From the NCBI RefSeq assembly GCF_048403405.1, contig NZ_CP183129.1: a DNA stretch of 64,000 nt, one strand, 5' to 3'. This document shows, one piece after another, positions 3,118 through 12,836 of the stretch. Position 1 is the stretch's first letter. Every line of letters starts with the position of its first letter. Position numbers and translations under genes: made by a program. The DNA is from Escherichia coli (GTDB lineage: Bacteria > Pseudomonadota > Gammaproteobacteria > Enterobacterales > Enterobacteriaceae). The notes beneath the pieces were generated by a model. That model was not told the DNA's origin, did no database searches, and saw only the letters and a program-made list of their open reading frames with translations.

Positions 3118-4971
3118 TTATGATGATGCCGGTGCATTTATCTCCAGCACCAGACTTTCTATCTCAACGCCATACGCTGCATTTTTGGTAATATCCGTCA
3201 GCGTCAGCGCATTCAGCCCCAGTGTCAGACTGTCTTTTATGACCTGGAATGCCGGGCCAGCCACTCCATTCAGTTTCGGAGTAACCGTGGCACTGCCGGC
3301 GGTGAACACCAGCTCCAGCGTCTGCCAGTCGTTACTGTAATTCCCGAACTCGCCCAACTTTGTGTTTCCTGCTTTCTTGTGATGCATCAGATTCAGTTTG
3401 CCGTCTGTGGTCTGGGTGAAGAACGACATCAGGAACGGGTTACCAGTCCCGGTCATCGCCACGACGTCAGGTAACGCTACATCGGTATACAGATAAATTC
3501 CCAGACCGAACTGATTGTTGGTCAGTGCGCCTGACAGTCGAAACTTACAGCTCAGTCTGCCACCCCGTGTCAGCAGGGAGACTGCGTCATCCACCGGGCG
3601 CGTCAGGGACCAGGCTTTATTGCTCTGCTTGGTGATCTTAAATACACCATCTGACAACTGAATTCCGCCATTCTTAATGCTCCAGCCCTGCGCAGCAGCG
3701 TCTCCGGCTGTCGGCAACAGGGAGATTGTGCGTATGGATGCATCTTCAGACGGCCCCGATGGCGTGTCGCCGCCGGGCGAGAGTTTGATTTCCGGTGCCT
3801 TACCACTAATGAAGGCTAAGGTGCGACCGGCTACGTTCAGAATAGCAGTTGCCATACGATCGGGAATAATGCCACGACGCGCCCATGAGCTGAAATGCGT
3901 CGGGCGATTTGATGATACCCAGTTTTTGTTCGTTCGGGATGCCGAACCGTAATAACCAGACCCGACAATATCAGGATCTTCTGACGGGTTGTTTGTCGGT
4001 GTATTAACTCCGCTACCATCGGTCATAAAGGGAACAAAATAAATCTGCTGGGATTCTTTACCTTTATATGCACCATATACCACTTCATATTGCGTACCGT
4101 GTTCTTGTTTCCACGCGTATGTCGTGTCGCCACAAATCCAGGGGACTGATGCCGGACTTCCACCGTGACACTGCGCTGCCAGCCCGGCAAGGTCAGCACG
4201 GAACTGCTGTACCATTGCAAGAAATGCTGCTGGCTGCTGGGCGTAACTGGCATTCGTCATATCGAATTCCCCCTGCATCCAGCATATCGCCAGCAAAACG
4301 TTTTTCGGGTTTTTCTGCAATGCTGCCTTCGTGCGGAAAAGCAGATCCTGATATAACGGCTTACCCACTCCCCAGCGAGCCGAATCCTGACTGGCTCCCG
4401 TGGACTCGCTGAATGTCCCCTCCGTGCCCTGGGTGAATGCCGAACCACCACGACAGCATGGTACCAGCAGGATCCCCGCATTATTAGGGATATACGGAAG
4501 CAGTTTTTTGGCAATATGTAAGCCCTGTCCGACACAGCCGTACTGCCCTTTGCTCAGGTCAGCCCGGGGATGGTTAATCGTACTCATATCCTGAACATCA
4601 TGCAGACAATGGTCAGCAGGAATGATGTCGTTAAATACGCATACTTCACCACCGGGAGTCACTGTGTTACGACGGGCCAGTTGCTTAATGCGCGGATGGG
4701 GCGCATCGTATGAATCCGGAAGCGGAAGCCCTTCACCGTAAGCCATGGCATTGGATTGCCCGGCCAGTACGATGACGTAGTACCACTCCGGCTCAGTTGC
4801 ACCACTGACGACCACATCACCTTCTGCTGCAATCGCCTGCATCAGGGTATAAGGGGTTATGGCCACCGGACTACCAAACGGCTGCCAGCCCTCCTTCAGT
4901 TTTTGTGTCAGTCGTTTCGCAAGGTCTGACGGCGATGCCGCCCTGACCACGTCATAGTGTTTAAATGCCAT
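3118..4971 (-). CDS. nanS: prophage sialate O-acetylesterase (NanS-p-like, SGNH hydrolase)
   Basis: 617-aa protein with GQSN motif (VLAGQSNAMAYG) near N-terminus and long C-terminal beta-rich region; sits between the tRNA cluster and holin as in Stx phages. Confidence 0.75.
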   Translation of the reverse strand: MAFKHYDVVRAASPSDLAKRLTQKLKEGWQPFGSPVAITPYTLMQAIAAEGDVVVSGATEPEWYYVIVLAGQSNAMAYGEGLPLPDSYDAPHPRIKQLARRNTVTPGGEVCVFNDIIPADHCLHDVQDMSTINHPRADLSKGQYGCVGQGLHIAKKLLPYIPNNAGILLVPCCRGGSAFTQGTEGTFSESTGASQDSARWGVGKPLYQDLLFRTKAALQKNPKNVLLAICWMQGEFDMTNASYAQQPAAFLAMVQQFRADLAGLAAQCHGGSPASVPWICGDTTYAWKQEHGTQYEVVYGAYKGKESQQIYFVPFMTDGSGVNTPTNNPSEDPDIVGSGYYGSASRTNKNWVSSNRPTHFSSWARRGIIPDRMATAILNVAGRTLAFISGKAPEIKLSPGGDTPSGPSEDASIRTISLLPTAGDAAAQGWSIKNGGIQLSDGVFKITKQSNKAWSLTRPVDDAVSLLTRGGRLSCKFRLSGALTNNQFGLGIYLYTDVALPDVVAMTGTGNPFLMSFFTQTTDGKLNLMHHKKAGNTKLGEFGNYSNDWQTLELVFTAGSATVTPKLNGVAGPAFQVIKDSLTLGLNALTLTDITKNAAYGVEIESLVLEINAPASS

Positions 4972-5164
4972 GAATCCTCCCGGGCGGGATAATGTTGTGA
5001 GTCAGATAAGGAGCAGGCTGAAGTCCGGAAGTTACAGGACAATGGCAGAAGGGAGACTACAGCCCGCAATTCGAAAAAGACCGCGCAGTTGCGCAGAGTG
5101 ATTACTATGGGGTATTATTCGCCAGCTGAAATATTACTTCACGTTTTATTGTTTATTCCTTGCC

Positions 5165-5193
5165 GCCCGCGTCTCCCAGCGCGGGCTTTTTTT
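5165..5193 (+). terminator. intrinsic terminator oriented for the plus strand
   Basis: gcccgcg / cgcgggc 7-bp stem, 8-nt loop, then ttttttt. Confidence 0.6.
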
Positions 5194-5202
5194 GTCCATA
5201 AG

Positions 5203-5436
5203 AAAGCCCCTCCGGAGAGGGGCTAAAGCCGCGTATCTGTATCATCATGCACATGGTGCCGGGTGCCTCCCGGTGAGTTCAGCCCGGTGCCACTAAACCC
5301 GCGTCATTCTCGTTTTGATAATCAGAGATTATACCGTCACCAGTCGCCCCTCCGCTCAGGGGGATTCACCATGCGAAATTTTTTTAACAAATGCCCAGTC
5401 TGACAGGCAACTGTCAACTTACTGAATTGTGAGCAA
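5203..5436 (-). repeat. copy 1 of a tandem ~220-bp structured element (candidate sRNA unit)
   Basis: Direct repeat of 5690..5904 (roughly three-quarters identity by eye); shares the hairpins agcccctc-cgga-gaggggct and ggtgccgggtgcctcccggtga; on the minus strand the unit ends in hairpin plus T-tract. Confidence 0.6.
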
Positions 5437-5689
5437 CATAGCATTTAACGGGGAACCTGTTTTCTGCAGTAAAAAGGCCCACCGGAGCGGATGGGCCTGG
5501 AAGGATAGCGGTCATGTGATGCCGGTTTCCCGGTAACTCAGCACCGGTATCTGAGTCAACGTTTTCTCTACTGGGTCATTTCCGATACGCCCTGCCTGCT
5601 GACAGGCTTTCATCACATCTGAAAATATAGCACCCTGACTGATACTGTAGTACCTAAGGTTCCAGAAACTGTGATGTATCCGGCACAGA

Positions 5690-5904
5690 AAAGCCCCTCC
5701 GGAGAGGGGCTGGAGAGTGGCGCTATGTGCCATTGCATGGTGCCGGGTGCCTCCCGGTGAATTCAGTACCAGCACCTGAATCCGCGATTATCCCATATAC
5801 CTACTCGCTGATTGCCCCTCCGCACAGGGGGATTCACCATGCCAGTTTCTTTTAACAAACTCCCCGCAAACCAGACAACAGTCAACCGCCTGAATTGTGA
5901 GACA
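5690..5904 (-). repeat. copy 2 of the tandem structured element
   Basis: Same hairpin set and shared segments (gggggattcaccatgc, tgaattgtgag) as copy 1. Confidence 0.6.
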
Positions 5905-5945
5905 TTTAAAAAAAAGCCCGCAAAAGCGAGCCAGGGAAAATAAGT

Positions 5946-6022
5946 GTGGCGCGTTGTACTGGATTCGAACCAGTGACCGATTGCTTAGAAGGCAATTGCT
6001 CTGTCCGGCTGAGCTAACAACG
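5946..6022 (-). tRNA. argO: tRNA-Arg (anticodon UCU), phage argO-like
   Basis: Reverse complement folds as canonical cloverleaf: acceptor GCGTTGT/ACAACGC, anticodon loop CTTCTAA, T-loop TTCGAAT, 3' CCA. Confidence 0.85.
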
Positions 6023-6035
6023 CAGGATACAGATA

Positions 6036-6113
6036 ATGGACCGCCTTCGGGGACCCGAACTCCGCGCAACCAGCTTCGAAGGCTGGCGCTCTTTCCTGAT
6101 GAGCTAATGGCGG
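6036..6113 (-). tRNA. argN: tRNA-Arg-like (anticodon UCG inferred), phage argN-like, possibly degenerate
   Basis: Cloverleaf with anticodon stem CCAGC/GCTGG and loop CTTCGAA, but one acceptor mismatch, one T-stem mismatch and atypical T-loop TTCGGGT. Confidence 0.6.
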
Positions 6114-6120
6114 TATGTGA

Positions 6121-6196
6121 TGGTGGCCCTTGCTGGATTTGAACCAGCGACCTGGCGATTATGAGTCGCTCGCTCTCACCACTGAGCTAAAGGGCC
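6121..6196 (-). tRNA. ileZ: tRNA-Ile2-like (anticodon CAU), phage ileZ-like
   Basis: Reverse complement GGCCCTTTAGCTCAGTGGTGAGAGCG...CTCATAA...TTCAAATCCAGCAAGGGCCACCA closely resembles E. coli ileX as recalled. Confidence 0.85.
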
Positions 6197-6245: not shown

Positions 6246-6572
6246 TCAAACGATTAAATCCTGAACTTCCCTGACTGTCTGCTCAAAACGTCCGGTCTCC
6301 AGTTCAACGCCAATCGCACGACGCCCGAGCGCCAGTGCCGCTTTTACCGTTGAACCTGAGCCCATAAAAAAATCTGCAACCAGGTCTCCCGGACGACTGC
6401 TTGCGCTGATTATCTGCTGCAGCATTTCTGCCGGTTTTTCGCACGGATGTTTCCCGGGATAGAACTGCACCGGTTTATGCGTCCAGACATCGGTATACGG
6501 CACCTGCGCTGTCACGCCAAAATACCGCCGCAGTCGGCATTCACAACCACAAGCGTGTTTAACGTACTGCAC
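6246..6572 (-). pseudogene. 5'-truncated DNA methyltransferase remnant (C-terminal half only)
   Basis: Carries HPCEKP and FMGSGST motifs but no upstream DPPY-type catalytic motif; in-frame stop 2 codons upstream of the GTG; only ~110 bp to the next gene. Confidence 0.6.
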
Positions 6573-6585
6573 AGCTTTTCAGACA

Positions 6586-6612
6586 TAAAAAGGCCGCCTG
6601 ATAGCAGCCTTT
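6586..6612 (-). terminator. intrinsic terminator downstream of the PP2C gene
   Basis: On minus strand aggctgc-tatcag-gcggcct stem (one G-U pair) followed by ttttt. Confidence 0.5.
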
Positions 6613-6682
6613 TCACATTAAAATTAAGTTTTTCTTTACTCTGTAGTATGGGAAATTAGCATTCCCTACTGGGTTTATACAA

Positions 6683-7426
6683 CTAATCTGACGTCACACG
6701 CACCATTATACTTACTAAAGAAAAGTCATCATCAGGTCCGGCTCTCTCTATACGACGCAAAATACCATTAGAAAACTTCTGACTATTACTCATAGTATTT
6801 GATGTAAATCTGGGGCGTTTTTCCCAAACGTTATGAACTCCATCAGACATGATACACAGATGATACAACCCGTTAATACCAGGCAAATCTTTCCACGGGA
6901 TAAAATCACAGTCGTATTCCATATCAACATTTGAGGCTATGGCAGTCGTTAAGATATTTTTTCCCGGTTTATTCTTCAAATCTCTGGGTTTAAAAATATT
7001 CTGATCAATTAACATCTGATGTCTGGTATCGTCCTTCGTCAATTGATATGCTTTCTTTTCTCCAATGCAATACAAGCGACAATCACCAATATGACCAATA
7101 ATAATTCCGCTATCACAAACATAACAAAAGGTAAGTGTAGTAGCAGCTTTATCGAACTCATCATTAACTTCAGCTAACGACATAACTTTTCGCTTAACTT
7201 CAGCAAATACATTCGGAACTGCATCAAAAGATAAACTTGTCAATGCTGAAAGTTCAGCGATTGCCATGGATGAAGCATAACTGGCACCAGAGTATGAACC
7301 TACACCATCAGCTACGGCAAATAAGATGCCGTCTCCTACAATTTTTGGAGGAAGCAATGAATCTTCGTTGACCCTACCTGGTTCTTTTGGATACGAGAAT
7401 GATGAAGTCGCTATCAGCTGAATCAT
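6683..7426 (-). CDS. PP2C-family (PPM) Ser/Thr protein phosphatase
   Basis: Motifs NEDS, FAVADGVGS, GHIGDCR, MSDGV in PP2C order; ATG with AAGGAG Shine-Dalgarno; 103 bp downstream of the kinase gene. Confidence 0.8.
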   Translation of the reverse strand: MIQLIATSSFSYPKEPGRVNEDSLLPPKIVGDGILFAVADGVGSYSGASYASSMAIAELSALTSLSFDAVPNVFAEVKRKVMSLAEVNDEFDKAATTLTFCYVCDSGIIIGHIGDCRLYCIGEKKAYQLTKDDTRHQMLIDQNIFKPRDLKNKPGKNILTTAIASNVDMEYDCDFIPWKDLPGINGLYHLCIMSDGVHNVWEKRPRFTSNTMSNSQKFSNGILRRIERAGPDDDFSLVSIMVRVTSD

Positions 7427-7529
7427 GACTCACTCCTTAAAAAAGAATGCGCAAAATCAAACGCCACATCATCTATTGTCTGATATCTATCATCTTTATC
7501 CATCCTTGTGCACTTAGCTATGATAGGCT

Positions 7530-8186
7530 TTATTTTTTATCATCTAAATTTAAGTCTTCAATTAACCGTCCCACAGCATAAACATCAGTCTTAACTGAAT
7601 ACTCTGCATTATATAAAATCTCGGGAGCCATATATCTTGTACTTCCCATACGGGTACCGATCTCGGTCAATTTAGTGGTATCCCCTTCGGGATTCGTATC
7701 TTTTACCAGACCAAAATCAGACACCTTGTATGTTCCGTCGCTAAATCGCAAAACATTAAAGGGTTTTATATCTCTGTGTAAATAGCCTTTGGCATGGATG
7801 TAAGCTACACCATCTAATACCATTTTCACTATTGAAATTTTTTGATCTGTTGTAAGAAGGTTGTTCGTTATTTCGTGCTCAAGATCACATTCTGCTTTAT
7901 CCATAATGAACCATGGATTCTCAACAAACAAATCGCACAAATAAATAGGAACAATATTGCTATGTACGCAATGTGATTGATACACAACCTCCCTTTTAAA
8001 ACGCCTTCTAAACTGCTCTATTTGCGCCAAAAGCTCTGGTTTTTCGGGTGCTAAAACCTTTCTAGCATAATCCCCGCATTCACCTTTATTGAGGTTGTAA
8101 ACCTTAACGTGTTCAACAAAGCCAAATGCCCCTCTTCCAATCAACTGAATTCGTTTTATAAAGTAATTACCGTGCTGTTCTTCCAT
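7530..8186 (-). CDS. Hanks-type (eukaryotic-like) Ser/Thr protein kinase
   Basis: Gly-rich loop GRGAFGFV, catalytic loop HRDIKPFN, DFG (VSDFGLV) and APE (YMAPEIL) motifs; start taken at internal ATG 8186 because the ORF's TTG start lies inside the upstream terminator hairpin. Confidence 0.8.
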   Translation of the reverse strand: MEEQHGNYFIKRIQLIGRGAFGFVEHVKVYNLNKGECGDYARKVLAPEKPELLAQIEQFRRRFKREVVYQSHCVHSNIVPIYLCDLFVENPWFIMDKAECDLEHEITNNLLTTDQKISIVKMVLDGVAYIHAKGYLHRDIKPFNVLRFSDGTYKVSDFGLVKDTNPEGDTTKLTEIGTRMGSTRYMAPEILYNAEYSVKTDVYAVGRLIEDLNLDDKK

Positions 8187-8258
8187 TAAGCTCACCGACC
8201 TAAATTGTAACAATATCCATATATTACAACTACAGATAAAAAGGTCCACAGAGTTAAG

Positions 8259-8287
8259 CAAAAAACCCGCACATTTGAGCGGGTTTA
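8259..8287 (-). terminator. intrinsic terminator immediately after the Q-like gene (tR'-like)
   Basis: Minus strand aaacccgc-tcaaatgt-gcgggtttttt. Confidence 0.6.
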
Positions 8288-8332
8288 TACACTTTACAGC
8301 AATATATCACATTTACATAAAATATATGCTAT

Positions 8333-9028
8333 CTAATTGACTTTTGCAATATCTCGCTGCAAAAATGCCGCTTTTTGTTGAGATCTCCTTTTCACAGTGC
8401 AAATCAGAGATTCGGTATCGAGGTTCATAAAAATGTCGAGTATTTCACGCCAGTAGCTCACATAATTGTGGCTCCAGTTGTCAGGCTTAATCCCACACAG
8501 ACGGGCAAGCTCCTGTTGCTGGTAGATATCATGTCCTATAACCCATCTCCTGACATCCTGTGCAGCCAGCCAGATTAATTTTTTCAGGCGTTCCTGTGTC
8601 TTCCCTGCAATTTTCCTGGTACCAGAGTGAGTCTTAAATTCTGTCCATGCCCACTGCGTTATCGCGATCTGATACTCCCAGCAAGTATTTCCGCTGTAAC
8701 ACCACAACAACCAGGCTTTATGATGTTCTTCAAGAGACAAAACAGCCCGCCGCCATGATGATGTAGAAAAAGCAACCTGACTGACCAGAGGAATTGACGT
8801 CCCCTTCGCCAGCGATTGTTTTCCCGGGATTGGTGGATTATCCCGCGTTATCATTTTTCCGGTCACTTCATCGCGGTACCGGATTTTTTTACGCCTGTAA
8901 CGCCCTGTATCGAACATGGCATTCTCCTGCCAGGCTTCAAGCTGACCTTTTGTTGCCCCACTCAAATCAGCGGTGGCGATAATGAGCTGCTCACGCACAA
9001 ACTGTAAATACTGGTTATTCATGCGCAC
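8333..9028 (-). CDS. putative late-gene antiterminator (Q-like)
   Basis: 231-aa protein directly downstream of rusA and upstream of terminator, tRNAs and lysis genes; assignment by position, not by a recognised motif. Confidence 0.45.
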   Translation of the reverse strand: MRMNNQYLQFVREQLIIATADLSGATKGQLEAWQENAMFDTGRYRRKKIRYRDEVTGKMITRDNPPIPGKQSLAKGTSIPLVSQVAFSTSSWRRAVLSLEEHHKAWLLWCYSGNTCWEYQIAITQWAWTEFKTHSGTRKIAGKTQERLKKLIWLAAQDVRRWVIGHDIYQQQELARLCGIKPDNWSHNYVSYWREILDIFMNLDTESLICTVKRRSQQKAAFLQRDIAKVN

Positions 9029-9378
9029 TCCAGTTCTGTGATTTTTATCCCCAGCCGCCCACCAGGAACGAGCTGACCGCGCACAATATTGATTTCATCA
9101 AACTGCTCGTCGTCTATAAGTAGTCCGGCATGCGTCAGCGCATCCAGTGGTGCCTTCAGGATATTGTCCAGGTCGCGGCGGCGCTTATCCGGTGGCTCTG
9201 CAATCACCTTTATCGCCAGCCTTCCGGACAGGCTTAATTTCAGCCGCTGCTGGCGAACAATAAGCGCCACAGCCCGGCGATAACGCTTTCCCTCCTCCGA
9301 GATAAAATATGTGCTGCCACGGCGTCGCCAGTAAGTGTTCACCGTCGGCGGGTAAGGTAAAACCAAATCTATGAGCAT
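9019..9378 (-). CDS. rusA: RusA Holliday-junction resolvase
   Basis: 119 aa; conserved PDKRRRDLDN and GGRLGIKITE segments match RusA as recalled. Confidence 0.85.
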   Translation of the reverse strand: MLIDLVLPYPPTVNTYWRRRGSTYFISEEGKRYRRAVALIVRQQRLKLSLSGRLAIKVIAEPPDKRRRDLDNILKAPLDALTHAGLLIDDEQFDEINIVRGQLVPGGRLGIKITELECA

Positions 9379-9390
9379 CAGTCACCTCTT

Positions 9391-10437
9391 TTACCCAAGC
9401 ACGCCAGTTGCAAAGGCGTGATCAAGAAAACGAAAAATTAAATCAACCTGAGAACCATGCTTTTCTTCGAACGCCAGAGGATCCGCATGAAGCTCGTTGT
9501 GATGCTCCCGACACAGCGGTAGCGTGAAAATATCGTGAGATTTTGTCCCCATTCCGCCCTGACCATGACCAATCAGGTGATGGGGATCGTCGGCTGGCTT
9601 ACCACAACACGCACACGGCTGTGTCTTCACCCAGCGTGTGTATTTCTCGTTAACCCAGCGGCGACGTTTAGGTCGTTTCATGAAAGATTCCGGAGACTCA
9701 GGATCAACGGCAATGCTGACCACCGTCTCTTCCTGTGGCGGGTTTTGCTGGTGGGCGTGAGGCAGCGGCGCAAGATTTTTTGTGCGCTGCTTCAGTATGC
9801 TGGTGGCGGTCTGCTCTCCCGGTACGATGTCGCTTTCACGGTACATTGAGCGGATTTTTTCCGCACGCAACCCCAGCGAACGACGTAATACCGCTTCCGG
9901 TAGCGCGTCCGCCACCTGATTGCGGACCGCCCACCAGGATAATTCAGCCAGCGATAATTCCCGTTCCTGCGAGCCATTCATTGCATGGCGTATGACGTCA
10001 ATCATCCATGCAGACAGGTTTTGGTGAGCAAGTTGCCCGAGTGATTCGGAGGTCTGGTCGCGCAGCTGGTTGTCGCAGTGCCAGCACAACACCATTGCGC
10101 CGGTACCATAACGGTGAATGACGGTTTCACTGTGGTGATAATCGCCGTGTGGCCACTGGCAGGATTTAACATGGCGCAGTAACCAATCAGACAATGCGCC
10201 AGCGCCACCAGCAGCACGAATCACTCGTTCGTCGCTGAAAAATGGCAGTAATGATTTATCCTCCGCCAGCGGCTGGCGAACGGCAGGAACGACCCCGGAC
10301 GGCAGATTACGCATGCTTTTCGGTTCCGGCTCCACCAGTACCCGGGTATTGTGGAATACCGGCATGGATTCACGGCCCGGCTTAACGATCACCAGCCCGA
10401 GTTCCGGTACCAGAACAGGTCGAAGTAATACCCGCAC
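9391..10437 (-). CDS. YdfU-like prophage protein (DUF968 type) with C-terminal Cys/His-rich motif
   Basis: 348 aa; CACCG...HHLIGHGQGGMGTKSHD...CREHHNELH cluster; position equivalent to ydfU in Qin. Confidence 0.6.
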   Translation of the reverse strand: MRVLLRPVLVPELGLVIVKPGRESMPVFHNTRVLVEPEPKSMRNLPSGVVPAVRQPLAEDKSLLPFFSDERVIRAAGGAGALSDWLLRHVKSCQWPHGDYHHSETVIHRYGTGAMVLCWHCDNQLRDQTSESLGQLAHQNLSAWMIDVIRHAMNGSQERELSLAELSWWAVRNQVADALPEAVLRRSLGLRAEKIRSMYRESDIVPGEQTATSILKQRTKNLAPLPHAHQQNPPQEETVVSIAVDPESPESFMKRPKRRRWVNEKYTRWVKTQPCACCGKPADDPHHLIGHGQGGMGTKSHDIFTLPLCREHHNELHADPLAFEEKHGSQVDLIFRFLDHAFATGVLG

Positions 10438-11101: not shown

Positions 11102-12208
11102 TCAAACAATCTGGAAAATATTTCTTGGATTTGTAATAGGTCTGTTGATGGAGAACAACTCACGAATTAAATCTTGGCTCAAGCCAGTTTTCATAAGAAT
11201 TCTTAGCCAGGTTGCATCATCCAGCATTTCAATCGCCTCGGCCAGCATGCCGGGTTCTTCAGGGCGCAAAAGTTCATCACCAGGTTCAACTCTCGTATAC
11301 CCTCTGGAATTAAGATGCATATAGCCAGTTCTTGCCTGTTCCTGGGTCAATAAGCCTAATGCGCTGGCTCGATAAATACACATTTTAAGGCTGATTTTCC
11401 ATCTAAGTTTAAATTCAACCAGAGCATTCCAGTCGAATTGCTTACCTCGTATTCGTGGAAATTCTTTAATGAAAGATAACCTGGGAACTAATAAGGCGCT
11501 CGAAAAGTGATCGGCTTGTGATTCCGTAAGTTTATCACCTGTCGTTATGCCCTCATGCATTACTAAATGCCCTAATTCATGACCTAAATCAGAGCGAAAT
11601 CTACATATGCTTTTTTTAACATTGTTCCTGATGATAACAGGCCTGTTATTGTGAACAGTAAAAGCATCAACACGATCATCGACTCCCGTAACATGCGCAA
11701 CGATTACCCCTAAACTCTCCGCCAATTTAACCATTGATGATATAGGGCCAAGACCTAAATTCCAGGCACGGCGACAATCTTCTGCCACTCGCTCAATATC
11801 ATTCGGAGTAAGTAATTCAGCCCCTGGGTGCTCCGGTATGTTAACGTCAGGAAATTCGATTTCACCTTCAACAGCAGAAATTATAATATTAAGAATCTCA
11901 GCCCTGGCCAATACACTATTAGTCAGCGTTTGAGTCCTGGACTTCTTACTCCGAAAATGGCAGACATCACTTTCCAGAGCGTATTTTCGTTCAGTAAAAA
12001 GAAAACTGGACTTAATCATAAGCGCTGAAGATATTAACTCAAGACATTGCTCCGATGGCCTGCACCCCTTCTCCAGTTTGCTAACGAATTGCTTTGTCTT
12101 GCCAATTTTTTCGGCTAACTCTTCACAAGAAAGCCCAACAGCCATTCTCGCTAGTTTGAGCTTATCACCCCGATACTCAGTGAAGTTATTCACCTGATGT
12201 TCCATCAC
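11102..12208 (-). CDS. HTH (XRE-family) + ImmA/IrrE-type M78 zinc metallopeptidase fusion protein
   Basis: N-terminal helix-turn-helix (LKLARMAVGLSCEELAEKIGKTKQFVSKLEKG); C-terminal HExxH (HELGHLVMHE); start overlaps the upstream gene by 23 bp. Confidence 0.8.
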   Translation of the reverse strand: MMEHQVNNFTEYRGDKLKLARMAVGLSCEELAEKIGKTKQFVSKLEKGCRPSEQCLELISSALMIKSSFLFTERKYALESDVCHFRSKKSRTQTLTNSVLARAEILNIIISAVEGEIEFPDVNIPEHPGAELLTPNDIERVAEDCRRAWNLGLGPISSMVKLAESLGVIVAHVTGVDDRVDAFTVHNNRPVIIRNNVKKSICRFRSDLGHELGHLVMHEGITTGDKLTESQADHFSSALLVPRLSFIKEFPRIRGKQFDWNALVEFKLRWKISLKMCIYRASALGLLTQEQARTGYMHLNSRGYTRVEPGDELLRPEEPGMLAEAIEMLDDATWLRILMKTGLSQDLIRELFSINRPITNPRNIFQIV

Positions 12209-12836
12209 TGCTCACATCCAAATCTTTATCCTTCGTACGCCGACGAAGAGGCACCTTATTAATCTCCGCTTCGTCAGGGAGTGTGTTATAATCAAGAGGC
12301 ATAAGCGGCATCGATGCTGTAGATTGATGAGAAACTATACTAATCTGAGCACCATAAGTATTAAATCCAACAAGAGCTACCTCCCAACGAGGCAGTGTGG
12401 ACTCTAATTCACCATCGCCCTCTTCGGATAAAAAAGGCTCAGCTATGACTCGCCATGTAATATCTTGCTCAGCCTCAACATCACCAAACAATGAGAGCTG
12501 CTCATACTCTACTTTATTTCGACGCAGACGATGTTTCTTTTTGGGGTTATTAATGCAATCTTTGGTAAATTGTAGCGGAACTTTATTTAAAGCAACTACA
12601 TAGTCCAACCCCTTGGAAATCATCTCAAGGCCAGGAATTGCATCTTCATTTTGAATAAGATGATTTCTGACCCAATCATAAGCCCTTACACCTTCAGACC
12701 AGTTGCTGTCTAATGCGTGCTTATGATAGTACAGCTGCTCAAGTACGTTAGCGATCTCCGCCAACAAGTGGCGAACATAGTTTTCAGCAAGATAAGGTTG
12801 AAATTCCCAACAAGGAGCTAACTGATTTTCATTCAT
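12186..12836 (-). CDS. hypothetical 216-aa protein with no recognisable domain, first gene of the cassette
   Basis: ATG at 12836; basic patch NPKKKHRLRRNK, acidic C-terminus; translationally coupled to the HTH-peptidase gene. Confidence 0.6.
   Translation of the reverse strand: MNENQLAPCWEFQPYLAENYVRHLLAEIANVLEQLYYHKHALDSNWSEGVRAYDWVRNHLIQNEDAIPGLEMISKGLDYVVALNKVPLQFTKDCINNPKKKHRLRRNKVEYEQLSLFGDVEAEQDITWRVIAEPFLSEEGDGELESTLPRWEVALVGFNTYGAQISIVSHQSTASMPLMPLDYNTLPDEAEINKVPLRRRTKDKDLDVSSDGTSGE

Follow-up and report, generated by a model that had tools for sequence, protein, structure and literature searches.

The 64,000-nt stretch of Escherichia coli DNA analysed here (contig NZ_CP183129.1, referred to throughout as the window) contains a Qin-like lambdoid prophage, in which a cassette of two genes, encoding a Hanks-type Ser/Thr kinase and a PP2C-family Ser/Thr phosphatase, follows the late antiterminator gene Q. 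The cassette is a horizontally mobile unit inserted in the leader of the late promoter, and it belongs to a family in which both genes are invariably linked. Tentatively, the family is read as a minimal, phosphorylation-based exclusion module, in which the kinase may serve as toxin and the PP2C as its antidote. This reading was taken as the best available hypothesis on the basis of the invariable linkage, the mobility, the lysogen-expressed and defence-type neighbourhoods of the pair and the recurrent knockout of the kinase gene; it also draws on the precedents of the kinase-kinase-phosphatase (KKP) module and of the 933W kinase Stk, and on the match of the kinase to defence kinases in PADLOC. 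In the window itself the kinase gene is frameshifted, and its locus is not to be taken for a functional kinase system.

Insertion of the cassette in the late-promoter leader

All genes relevant here are located on the minus strand. The cassette and its junctions comprise the following features.

8321–8349, minus: putative late promoter pR' (TTGCAA-17-TATATT), overlapping the Q stop codon; consensus scan, position inferred
6615–8298, minus: inserted kinase–PP2C cassette, approximately 1.68 kb; three-way comparison and GC content
8263–8286, minus: cassette-borne intrinsic terminator 5' of the kinase gene; terminator scan, ΔG −15.5 kcal/mol, z −3.06
7530–8186, minus: Hanks-type Ser/Thr kinase, truncated allele, 218 aa; PF00069, phrog_2361
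7533–7538, minus: frameshift site, A6 here and A7 in intact alleles, making a TAA stop codon at 7532..7530
7423–7530, minus: out-of-frame remnant of the kinase C-terminus, KPIIAKCTRMDKDDRYQTIDDVAFDFAHSFLRSES with its stop codon, ending in the ATGA overlap with the PP2C gene
6683–7426, minus: PP2C-family Ser/Thr phosphatase, 247 aa, intact; PP2C_2, Stp1/IreP model, PstP
6583–6618, minus: resident leader terminator (tR'-type, of the recipient phage), now 3' of the PP2C gene; ΔG −20.4 kcal/mol, z −6.42

The insertion was mapped by comparing the window with enterotoxigenic E. coli (ETEC) E24377A (L006), which has the cassette together with an intact 65-aa open reading frame (ORF) and an intact methyltransferase gene, and with avian pathogenic E. 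coli (APEC) O18 (L007), which is free of the cassette. The cassette (approximately 8298..6615) replaces 26 bp about 36 nt past the Q stop codon, the stretch of the Q end and pR' being common to the empty site of APEC O18 up to window position 8299. The insertion point therefore lies between the putative pR' and the resident leader terminator (6618..6583), which is homologous to the terminator found directly 3' of Q in the empty site. The GC content is 37–38% in the cassette vs. approximately 52% in both flanks. With its position between conserved phage genes, its deviant GC content, its terminators (in the window, in Cronobacter phage phiES15 and in a Yersinia prophage) and its absence from sibling phages, the cassette has the features of a moron.

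An earlier note on this DNA had described a co-directional kinase and PP2C pair between Q (9028..8333) and the tRNA cluster (6196..5947), and the ORF map and Pfam agree with that description. Its view of the pair as late-operon cargo was supported: the pair is accessory DNA, carried by a lambdoid prophage in the Q-dependent leader of the late operon. The bracketing by intrinsic terminators, which had been proposed for each gene, holds for the pair as a unit (8286..8263 and approximately 6618..6583); no terminator was found between the kinase and PP2C genes, which in intact alleles overlap by ATGA. The phiES15 and Yersinia copies are likewise flanked by terminator-like hairpins. During lytic growth, Q-modified RNA polymerase would read through the cassette, and the flanking terminators would insulate it otherwise. 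Between the upstream terminator and the kinase gene, a promoter-like candidate with 8 of 12 consensus positions (TGGACC-16-TAATAT) was found in the window, below the scan threshold, and one with 10 of 12 positions in the Yersinia copy, such consensus matches being no commoner than in shuffled sequence.

Three further observations were made at the cassette ends. An exact 11-nt direct repeat, TGTATAAACCC (minus strand), occurs at 8281–8291, before the stem of the 5' terminator, and at 6671–6681, right after the PP2C stop codon, and is less conserved in the E24377A allele; it could mark a recombination or insertion event, but a single 11-mer repeat within 3.5 kb is about what chance would give. 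In the 5' untranslated region (UTR) of the kinase gene (8229–8205, minus), the imperfect inverted repeat TTGTAATAT...ATATTGTTACAA immediately precedes the ribosome-binding site of the kinase gene. In a comparison of the window and E24377A alleles, one arm is changed from T to G and the other from G to C, whereby a U–G pair becomes G–C; the repeat would fit an RNA hairpin or an operator, and the fold of the whole UTR gave a z-score of only −1.1. An Rfam match to Leu_leader at 8260–8362 (27 bits vs. a gathering score of 50) was discarded, as it corresponds to the terminator hairpin.

The kinase and its frameshift

The kinase ORF (ATG at 8186, in agreement with the RefSeq start call; stop codon at 7530) was matched by Pfam Pkinase (PF00069, E = 3.5e-33, model positions 3–187 of 263) and by phrog_2361 (E = 6.8e-88). 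The Gly-rich loop GRGAFG (17–22), K43, helix-C E66, HRDIKPFN (137–144), DFG (157–159), APE (187–189) and helix-F D201 are present and were invariant in a 51-sequence family alignment; the invariant residues retained in the window kinase are G17, G19, G22, K43, E66, H137, R138, D139, K141, N144, D157-F158-G159, E189 and D201. Catalytic residues are thus intact rather than degenerate. Complete motif sets had been claimed for both enzymes, which is correct for the PP2C residues and the kinase catalytic motifs, but not for the kinase C-lobe, which is interrupted by the frameshift stop at residue 218.

Compared with the 254-aa allele of other strains, in which the C-lobe is complete, the window kinase has lost its last 36 residues, among them R234/Y235 (at least 90% conserved in the 51-sequence alignment). 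Over 1760 nt, the sole difference between E. coli ML35 and the window is A7 instead of A6 (7538–7533); in ML35 the kinase is 254 aa long, with an overlap of 4 nt (ATGA) between its stop codon and the start codon of the PP2C gene. The missing C-terminus KPIIAKCTRMDKDDRYQTIDDVAFDFAHSFLRSES is still readable out of frame from 7530 to 7423 and aligns with the C-termini of the kinases of phages Flotzy and phiES15, homologues of 255–259 aa which are approximately 37 residues longer than the window kinase. Since the A6 allele was found in four RefSeq genomes (118UI, ECO_1_S, ECO_2_R, MSB1_7C) and in one IMG/VR contig (L032), it is probably real and not an assembly error.

An AlphaFold model of the full-length kinase (pLDDT 90.2; pTM 0.87) has a canonical kinase fold, in which helix F (198–211) is followed by helices 220–226 and 238–250; the frameshift removes the latter two. 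A structure search with this model retrieved generic kinase folds only (BTK, PknB; TM-score approximately 0.73), without a specific functional lead. In protein kinases, the subdomain-XI Arg bridges to the Glu of the APE motif, and the terminal helices pack on the C-lobe. Judged by this general knowledge of kinase structure, the loss of the Arg and of the terminal helices probably renders the 218-aa protein inactive or unstable, which would leave the phosphatase as the only intact enzyme of the window locus.

The PP2C phosphatase

The second ORF was matched by PP2C_2 (PF13672, E = 1.1e-13) and by the Stp1/IreP PP2C model (E = 2.2e-27), and was aligned to the PstP structure (1TXO, E = 2e-11); the Pfam results for both ORFs are in line with the domain assignments of the earlier note. 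The metal-binding Asp/Gly motifs D22, D40-G41-G43, G114-D115, D195-G196 and D233-D234 are all present and were invariant in 58 family sequences. The gene has its own AAGGAG ribosome-binding site. The subfamily is small, with 19 representative clusters at E ≤ 1e-30 among 1.84 billion.

Distribution, obligate pairing and decay

The pair was found in 49 of 5426 complete E. coli genomes (annotated in RefSeq as serine/threonine-protein kinase and PP2C family phosphatase), always on the chromosome. It occurs at the same site in two prophage backgrounds, with alleles about 92% identical, and the intact 254-aa kinase is retained in approximately 43 of the 49 genomes. Carriers include ETEC E24377A, enteroaggregative E. 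coli (EAEC) 55989, APEC BEN2908 and the commensal ML35. Proteins of the kinase family (approximately 241–284 aa) are present in Enterobacterales, Pseudomonas, Vibrio, Aeromonas, Haemophilus, Xanthomonas and others. A near-identity DNA search of phage genomes gave no match; the cassette is known solely from prophages in bacterial assemblies and from IMG/VR contigs, to which a protein search added two diverged phage genomes.

Pairing was assessed at 89 loci, 9 from genomes and 80 from IMG/VR. The PP2C gene was located directly downstream of the kinase gene, on the same strand, in all of them (89/89), down to 36% kinase identity, and the 4-nt ATGA overlap was found in about 70. Taken with the invariant catalytic residues of 51 kinases and 58 phosphatases, this adjacency shows that the pair is under purifying selection. 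The surroundings of the pair differ between hosts as follows.

E. coli, Cronobacter phiES15 and Yersinia prophage: directly after Q or a Q-like antiterminator gene
Phage Flotzy, and prophages of Enterobacter: between the Rz and terminase genes
Haemophilus prophage: close to the integrase end
Ferrimonas prophage: directly downstream of a cI-like HTH-S24 repressor gene and in the same orientation, where 933W has stk
P. syringae: flanked by a Panacea antitoxin-domain gene on one side and by P2-like tail genes on the other
Xanthomonas: adjoining a NACHT NTPase gene and SymE
P. putida: in a transposase island

These positions are of accessory or defence type; clearly, the cassette does not serve a core function of the phage.

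Disruption of the kinase gene was counted as 5–6 independent events, which are listed here by lineage or contig.

Window lineage: A7 to A6
Strain 510016 and L033: 10-nt deletion
SY033: IS1 insertion
L063: internal stop codon
L094, a 42%-identical relative: frameshift within A7/A9 runs of the same linker
L093: partial duplication, which may be an assembly artefact

The PP2C gene was found disrupted once, in the strongly eroded sister prophage of SY033 (L098), in which an IS3 element removes the PP2C C-terminus and Q (IS3) and the kinase gene (IS1) are hit as well. The independent frameshift of L094 (IMG/VR, approximately 1581–1612) affects the Lys-rich linker that joins helix F to the C-terminal helices; the related intact gene of L087 has A6 and A8 runs. 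A homopolymer phase switch as a trait of the whole family was considered and rejected as a lineage quirk, linker runs of at least 7 nt being present in just 11 of 72 distinct kinase genes, in two clades.

Comparison with known kinase and phosphatase systems

The closest characterised system is KKP, the PfkA/PfkB/PfpC kinase-kinase-phosphatase module of Pf6 and of P2-, P4- and Mu-like prophages (Guo et al. 2024, PMC11341870), which also occurs in E. coli prophages (PMC11341870). Its two kinases are jointly toxic, the PP2C neutralises them, and the module defends against lytic phages; inhibition of the phosphatase by T4 Gp59 triggers the defence, in which the kinases, once released, phosphorylate essential proteins and prevent phage production (PMC11341870). 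Prophage regulation via MvaU was the function described first for KKP (PMC11341870). As in KKP, a prophage-borne Hanks-type kinase and a PP2C (PF13672) are encoded in one operon. KKP, however, consists of three genes of 900–1300 bp in the order PP2C-kinase-kinase, whereas the cassette has two, kinase then PP2C (765 and 744 bp), and the KKP kinases have C-terminal CSD (PfkA) and FHA (PfkB) domains required for toxicity, whereas the cassette proteins are bare catalytic domains. Membership in KKP was rejected on architecture and gene order (no triplet, no CSD or FHA domain), the neighbours of the cassette being Q and the methyltransferase remnant.

The kinase Stk of 933W, which the earlier note had brought in as a precedent, is a prophage kinase that excludes HK97 and was described as a tyrosine kinase (PMC3681748). 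It resembles the window kinase as a eukaryote-like kinase on a lambdoid E. coli prophage, and the Ferrimonas homologue shares its position downstream of a repressor gene. Alignment by BLASTP gave 24% identity over 215 columns, in the C-lobe only (E = 6e-13); Stk, at 348 aa, is extended at its C-terminus and has an additional segment of some 50 residues, and stk lies between cI and N in the immunity region without an adjacent phosphatase gene, whereas the cassette kinase follows Q. The low C-lobe identity and the different location rule out close kinship or a Stk-type membership and make Stk a distant relative only.

In PADLOC, the kinase domain was matched by mad6 (E = 4.1e-40), PD-T4-6 (3.2e-32) and Stk2 (2e-25), the matches spanning only the kinase part of longer profiles (e.g. 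51–243 of 659, 11–201 of 327 and 160–311 of 500). PD-T4-6, Stk2 and Mad6 of MADS have extra domains and no PP2C partner. Membership in these three systems was rejected, as the catalytic domain alone is shared and NCBIfam scores are far below the cut-off (61 vs. 460 for MAD6).

True members of the family are gp21/gp22 of phiES15 and CDS0008/0009 of Flotzy, with full-length identities of 43–48% (kinase) and 41–43% (PP2C). Both pairs share the gene order, the 4-nt overlap and the late-operon location, the phiES15 pair lying directly after Q between two terminators. They are annotated by domain only, and their kinases are intact (255–259 aa), whereas that of the window is truncated.

PknB/PstP, Stk1/Stp1 and PrkC/PrpC belong to the same two enzyme superfamilies, and the best matches among solved structures were S. 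aureus PknB and M. tuberculosis PstP. The housekeeping kinases are encoded in the core genome and are membrane proteins that have PASTA domains or other sensors, whereas the cassette encodes bare soluble domains on mobile elements; NCBIfam scores were below the housekeeping equivalog cut-offs (96 vs. 450 and 96 vs. 230). The TerY-P triad, a described defence system, is composed of the vWA protein TerY, a PP2C and a kinase. Membership in TerY-P was rejected, as there is no third gene and no vWA domain among the Pfam matches flanking the pair in nine genome loci; no TerY-P model was present among the best 25 of 34 PADLOC matches of the kinase, nor among the PP2C matches. Literature searches for a two-gene kinase/PP2C defence or toxin–antitoxin module retrieved KKP only, and there is no PP2C system in the DefensePredictor paper. 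Both genes are named by domain alone in RefSeq and in the phage annotations.

Surrounding prophage genes

Around the cassette, the prophage is arranged as follows.

9391–10437, minus: DUF968 gene
9019–9378, minus: RusA
8333–9028, minus: late antiterminator Q, 229–231 aa; phrog_304 (E = 5.8e-102), RefSeq "bacteriophage antitermination protein Q"
6246–6533, minus: 3' remnant of a DNA methyltransferase gene, deletion junction at approximately 6532–6535; PADLOC MTase_II, RefSeq pseudogene
5947–6196, minus: tRNA cluster, consisting of a CAT-anticodon tRNA (ileZ-like), tRNA-Arg(TCG) and tRNA-Arg(TCT); ARAGORN, RefSeq, 933W annotation
4972–5946, minus: counterpart of the 933W stx2AB slot, with STnc100 small RNA copies and no toxin genes
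3118–4971, minus: SASA-family esterase, followed by holin and lysis genes

The 6572..6246 ORF represents the 3' end of a gene for an N6/N4 DNA methyltransferase. PADLOC MTase_II is matched at positions 238–333 of 333 only, and RefSeq annotates a pseudogene missing its N-terminus, which is consistent with the decapitated remnant seen previously. Mapped against E24377A, the window lineage lacks 1182 bp, so that the 65-aa ORF is missing and the methyltransferase gene is without two-thirds of its length at the 5' end. Because E24377A-type prophages have the cassette together with an intact 65-aa ORF and an intact methyltransferase gene, the truncation is a separate, later deletion, independent of the cassette, and not an insertion scar; the recent cargo swap that had been read from it is not upheld.

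The position of the pair had also been equated with the slot in which Stx phages carry stx, and this has to be corrected. The gene map of 933W has the order Q, pR', tRNAs, stx2AB, SASA esterase and S, and the window has the order Q, cassette, methyltransferase remnant, tRNAs, STnc100 copies and esterase. Since stx2AB lies between the last phage tRNA gene (argO) and the SASA esterase/nanS-p gene, the equivalent slot in the window is 4972–5946 and not 6573–8332. The cassette is in a Q-dependent transcription unit equivalent to that of stx, outside the stx slot proper.

The interval from the tRNA cluster to the esterase gene spans approximately 975 bp without long ORFs. It contains STnc100 (RF02076, minus) at 5194–5403 (165 bits) and 5681–5871 (136 bits), with a weak copy at 5469–5642, as part of direct repeats about 470–485 bp apart, each ending in a terminator hairpin. 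In strain 118UI (L001, 9947–11160), an IS3-family element is located between the tRNAs and the esterase gene (window position approximately 5900) and is absent from the window, which identifies the window as a different strain of the same lineage, the A6 allele being common to both. The tRNA at 6121–6196 (minus) was called tRNA-Met (CAT) by ARAGORN and tRNA-Ile (ileZ-like) by RefSeq and the 933W record; a CAT-anticodon tRNA-Ile of this kind presumably undergoes lysidine modification. Two overlapping ORFs, 11102–12208 and 12186–12836 (minus), are situated between hokD and the DUF968 gene. One encodes 368 aa with an N-terminal helix-turn-helix and an HExxH motif (GHELGHLVMH), resembling, as judged by eye, an ImmA/IrrE-type metalloprotease fusion; it is preceded by a 216-aa protein, and the two may form a further pair of prophage genes with an accessory or regulatory role.

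Proposed role of the family and alternatives

In the proposed exclusion module, the stand-alone kinase would phosphorylate itself as well as essential host or phage proteins, and the translationally coupled PP2C would continuously reverse this phosphorylation. If the phosphatase were inhibited, titrated or outpaced by an infecting phage, the kinase would be freed, leading to cell arrest and a block of phage production, and the module could be used in this way for superinfection exclusion or abortive infection. Kinase genes disrupted in 5–6 events and a PP2C gene disrupted in one is what a toxic kinase with a harmless antidote would give. Among kinase/phosphatase defence modules, the family makes a good candidate for a variant that is both new and minimal. 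A more specific version is conceivable, if rather doubtful, namely that the pair is an undescribed two-component abortive-infection or toxin–antidote system disseminated by prophages and islands of Gammaproteobacteria, with the bare kinase as toxin and the coupled PP2C as antidote and phage sensor, in which slippage in the A-run of the kinase linker may provide an off-switch.

Several points weigh against the exclusion module. Toxicity, neutralisation and phage protection are each inferred for this family by analogy. In lambdoid phages the cassette is part of the late, Q-dependent transcript and is preceded by a terminator, which favours lytic over lysogen expression, and in the window only the weak 8-of-12 promoter-like site is located between terminator and kinase gene. 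The kinase has no sensor domain; Pfam shows a kinase domain alone, and the 254-aa full-length protein leaves no space for a further one. The toxin-first gene order is unlike that of most type II toxin–antitoxin pairs. The PP2C had no significant PADLOC match (best E = 0.0035), and the pair is not a catalogued defence system. The 5–6 vs. 1 asymmetry is not significant (one-sided binomial approximately 0.06–0.11), the events having been counted without a tree and some of them possibly being assembly errors. Lastly, the window copy is broken, and the family role is probably not being performed here.

The main rival, in itself considered unlikely, is reprogramming of the host in the lytic phase: a late, Q-dependent pair would retune host or phage proteins in virion production or lysis timing, the phosphatase limiting or shaping the target range of the kinase, with no role in the lysogen or in exclusion. 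Phage T7 offers a parallel in its gp0.7 kinase, which retunes the host early in infection. It ranks first among the rivals because of the placement of the lambdoid cassette in the Q-dependent transcript behind a terminator: the pair is inside the late operon in five lambdoid contexts (after Q, or between Rz and terminase), and in the window a terminator stands between the putative pR' and the pair, with no promoter-like site of threshold level before the kinase gene. However, the pair is also found after a cI-like repressor gene, near an integrase gene, beside NACHT and SymE genes and in a transposase island, and the Yersinia copy has its 10-of-12 promoter-like site between upstream terminator and kinase gene. 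Moreover, less than 1% of E. coli genomes have the pair and close prophages are without it, so that it is dispensable for the phage.

Two lesser rivals concern decay and lysogeny. Decaying passenger DNA without a current function in this genome, by ordinary prophage erosion, would account for the frameshifted kinase gene, the methyltransferase gene cut by the 1182-bp deletion, the IS1 and IS3 elements in Q, kinase and PP2C genes of SY033 and the IS3 element beside the tRNAs of 118UI. It applies to the window copy but not to the family, in which the catalytic residues of 51 kinases and 58 phosphatases and the adjacency of the genes have been maintained; with about 43 of 49 E. coli genomes having an intact kinase, and the window PP2C being intact, it was judged improbable.

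Regulation of the prophage or of lysogeny, in which the balance of kinase and phosphatase would set induction or silencing through phosphorylation of a nucleoid or repressor protein, was given slightly lower weight again, as a decidedly improbable explanation. It has a precedent in KKP (PMC11341870), and is consistent with the Ferrimonas copy in the immunity region beside a cI-like repressor gene and with the several lambdoid prophages that host genomes commonly have, the Q–tRNA region having up to 13 matching places per host genome. Against it, KKP depends on CSD and FHA domains, of which the minimal kinase is devoid, and for a copy in an island outside any prophage there is no prophage to control.

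NleH is a prophage-borne effector kinase and OspG a minimal kinase of Shigella. A eukaryote-directed effector of this kind, suggested by a small stand-alone kinase domain on a lambdoid prophage and by carriers such as ETEC E24377A, EAEC 55989 and APEC BEN2908, is highly improbable, as the obligately coupled cytoplasmic phosphatase argues for action within the bacterium and the pair is also present in environmental Pseudomonas, Vibrio, Ferrimonas and Xanthomonas and in the commensal E. coli ML35; a secretion signal is not evident either, though no search aimed at one was made.

If the exclusion module is the correct reading, the family would be the simplest known kinase/phosphatase defence system, made of two bare catalytic domains of about 250 aa without sensor or adaptor, and a tractable model for the tipping of a phosphorylation balance by phage infection. 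In lambdoid prophages, the accessory region between Q and the lysis genes, the transcription unit that drives Shiga toxin, would also gain a class of cargo. As a compact family with invariant pairing, it is easily recognised and tested.

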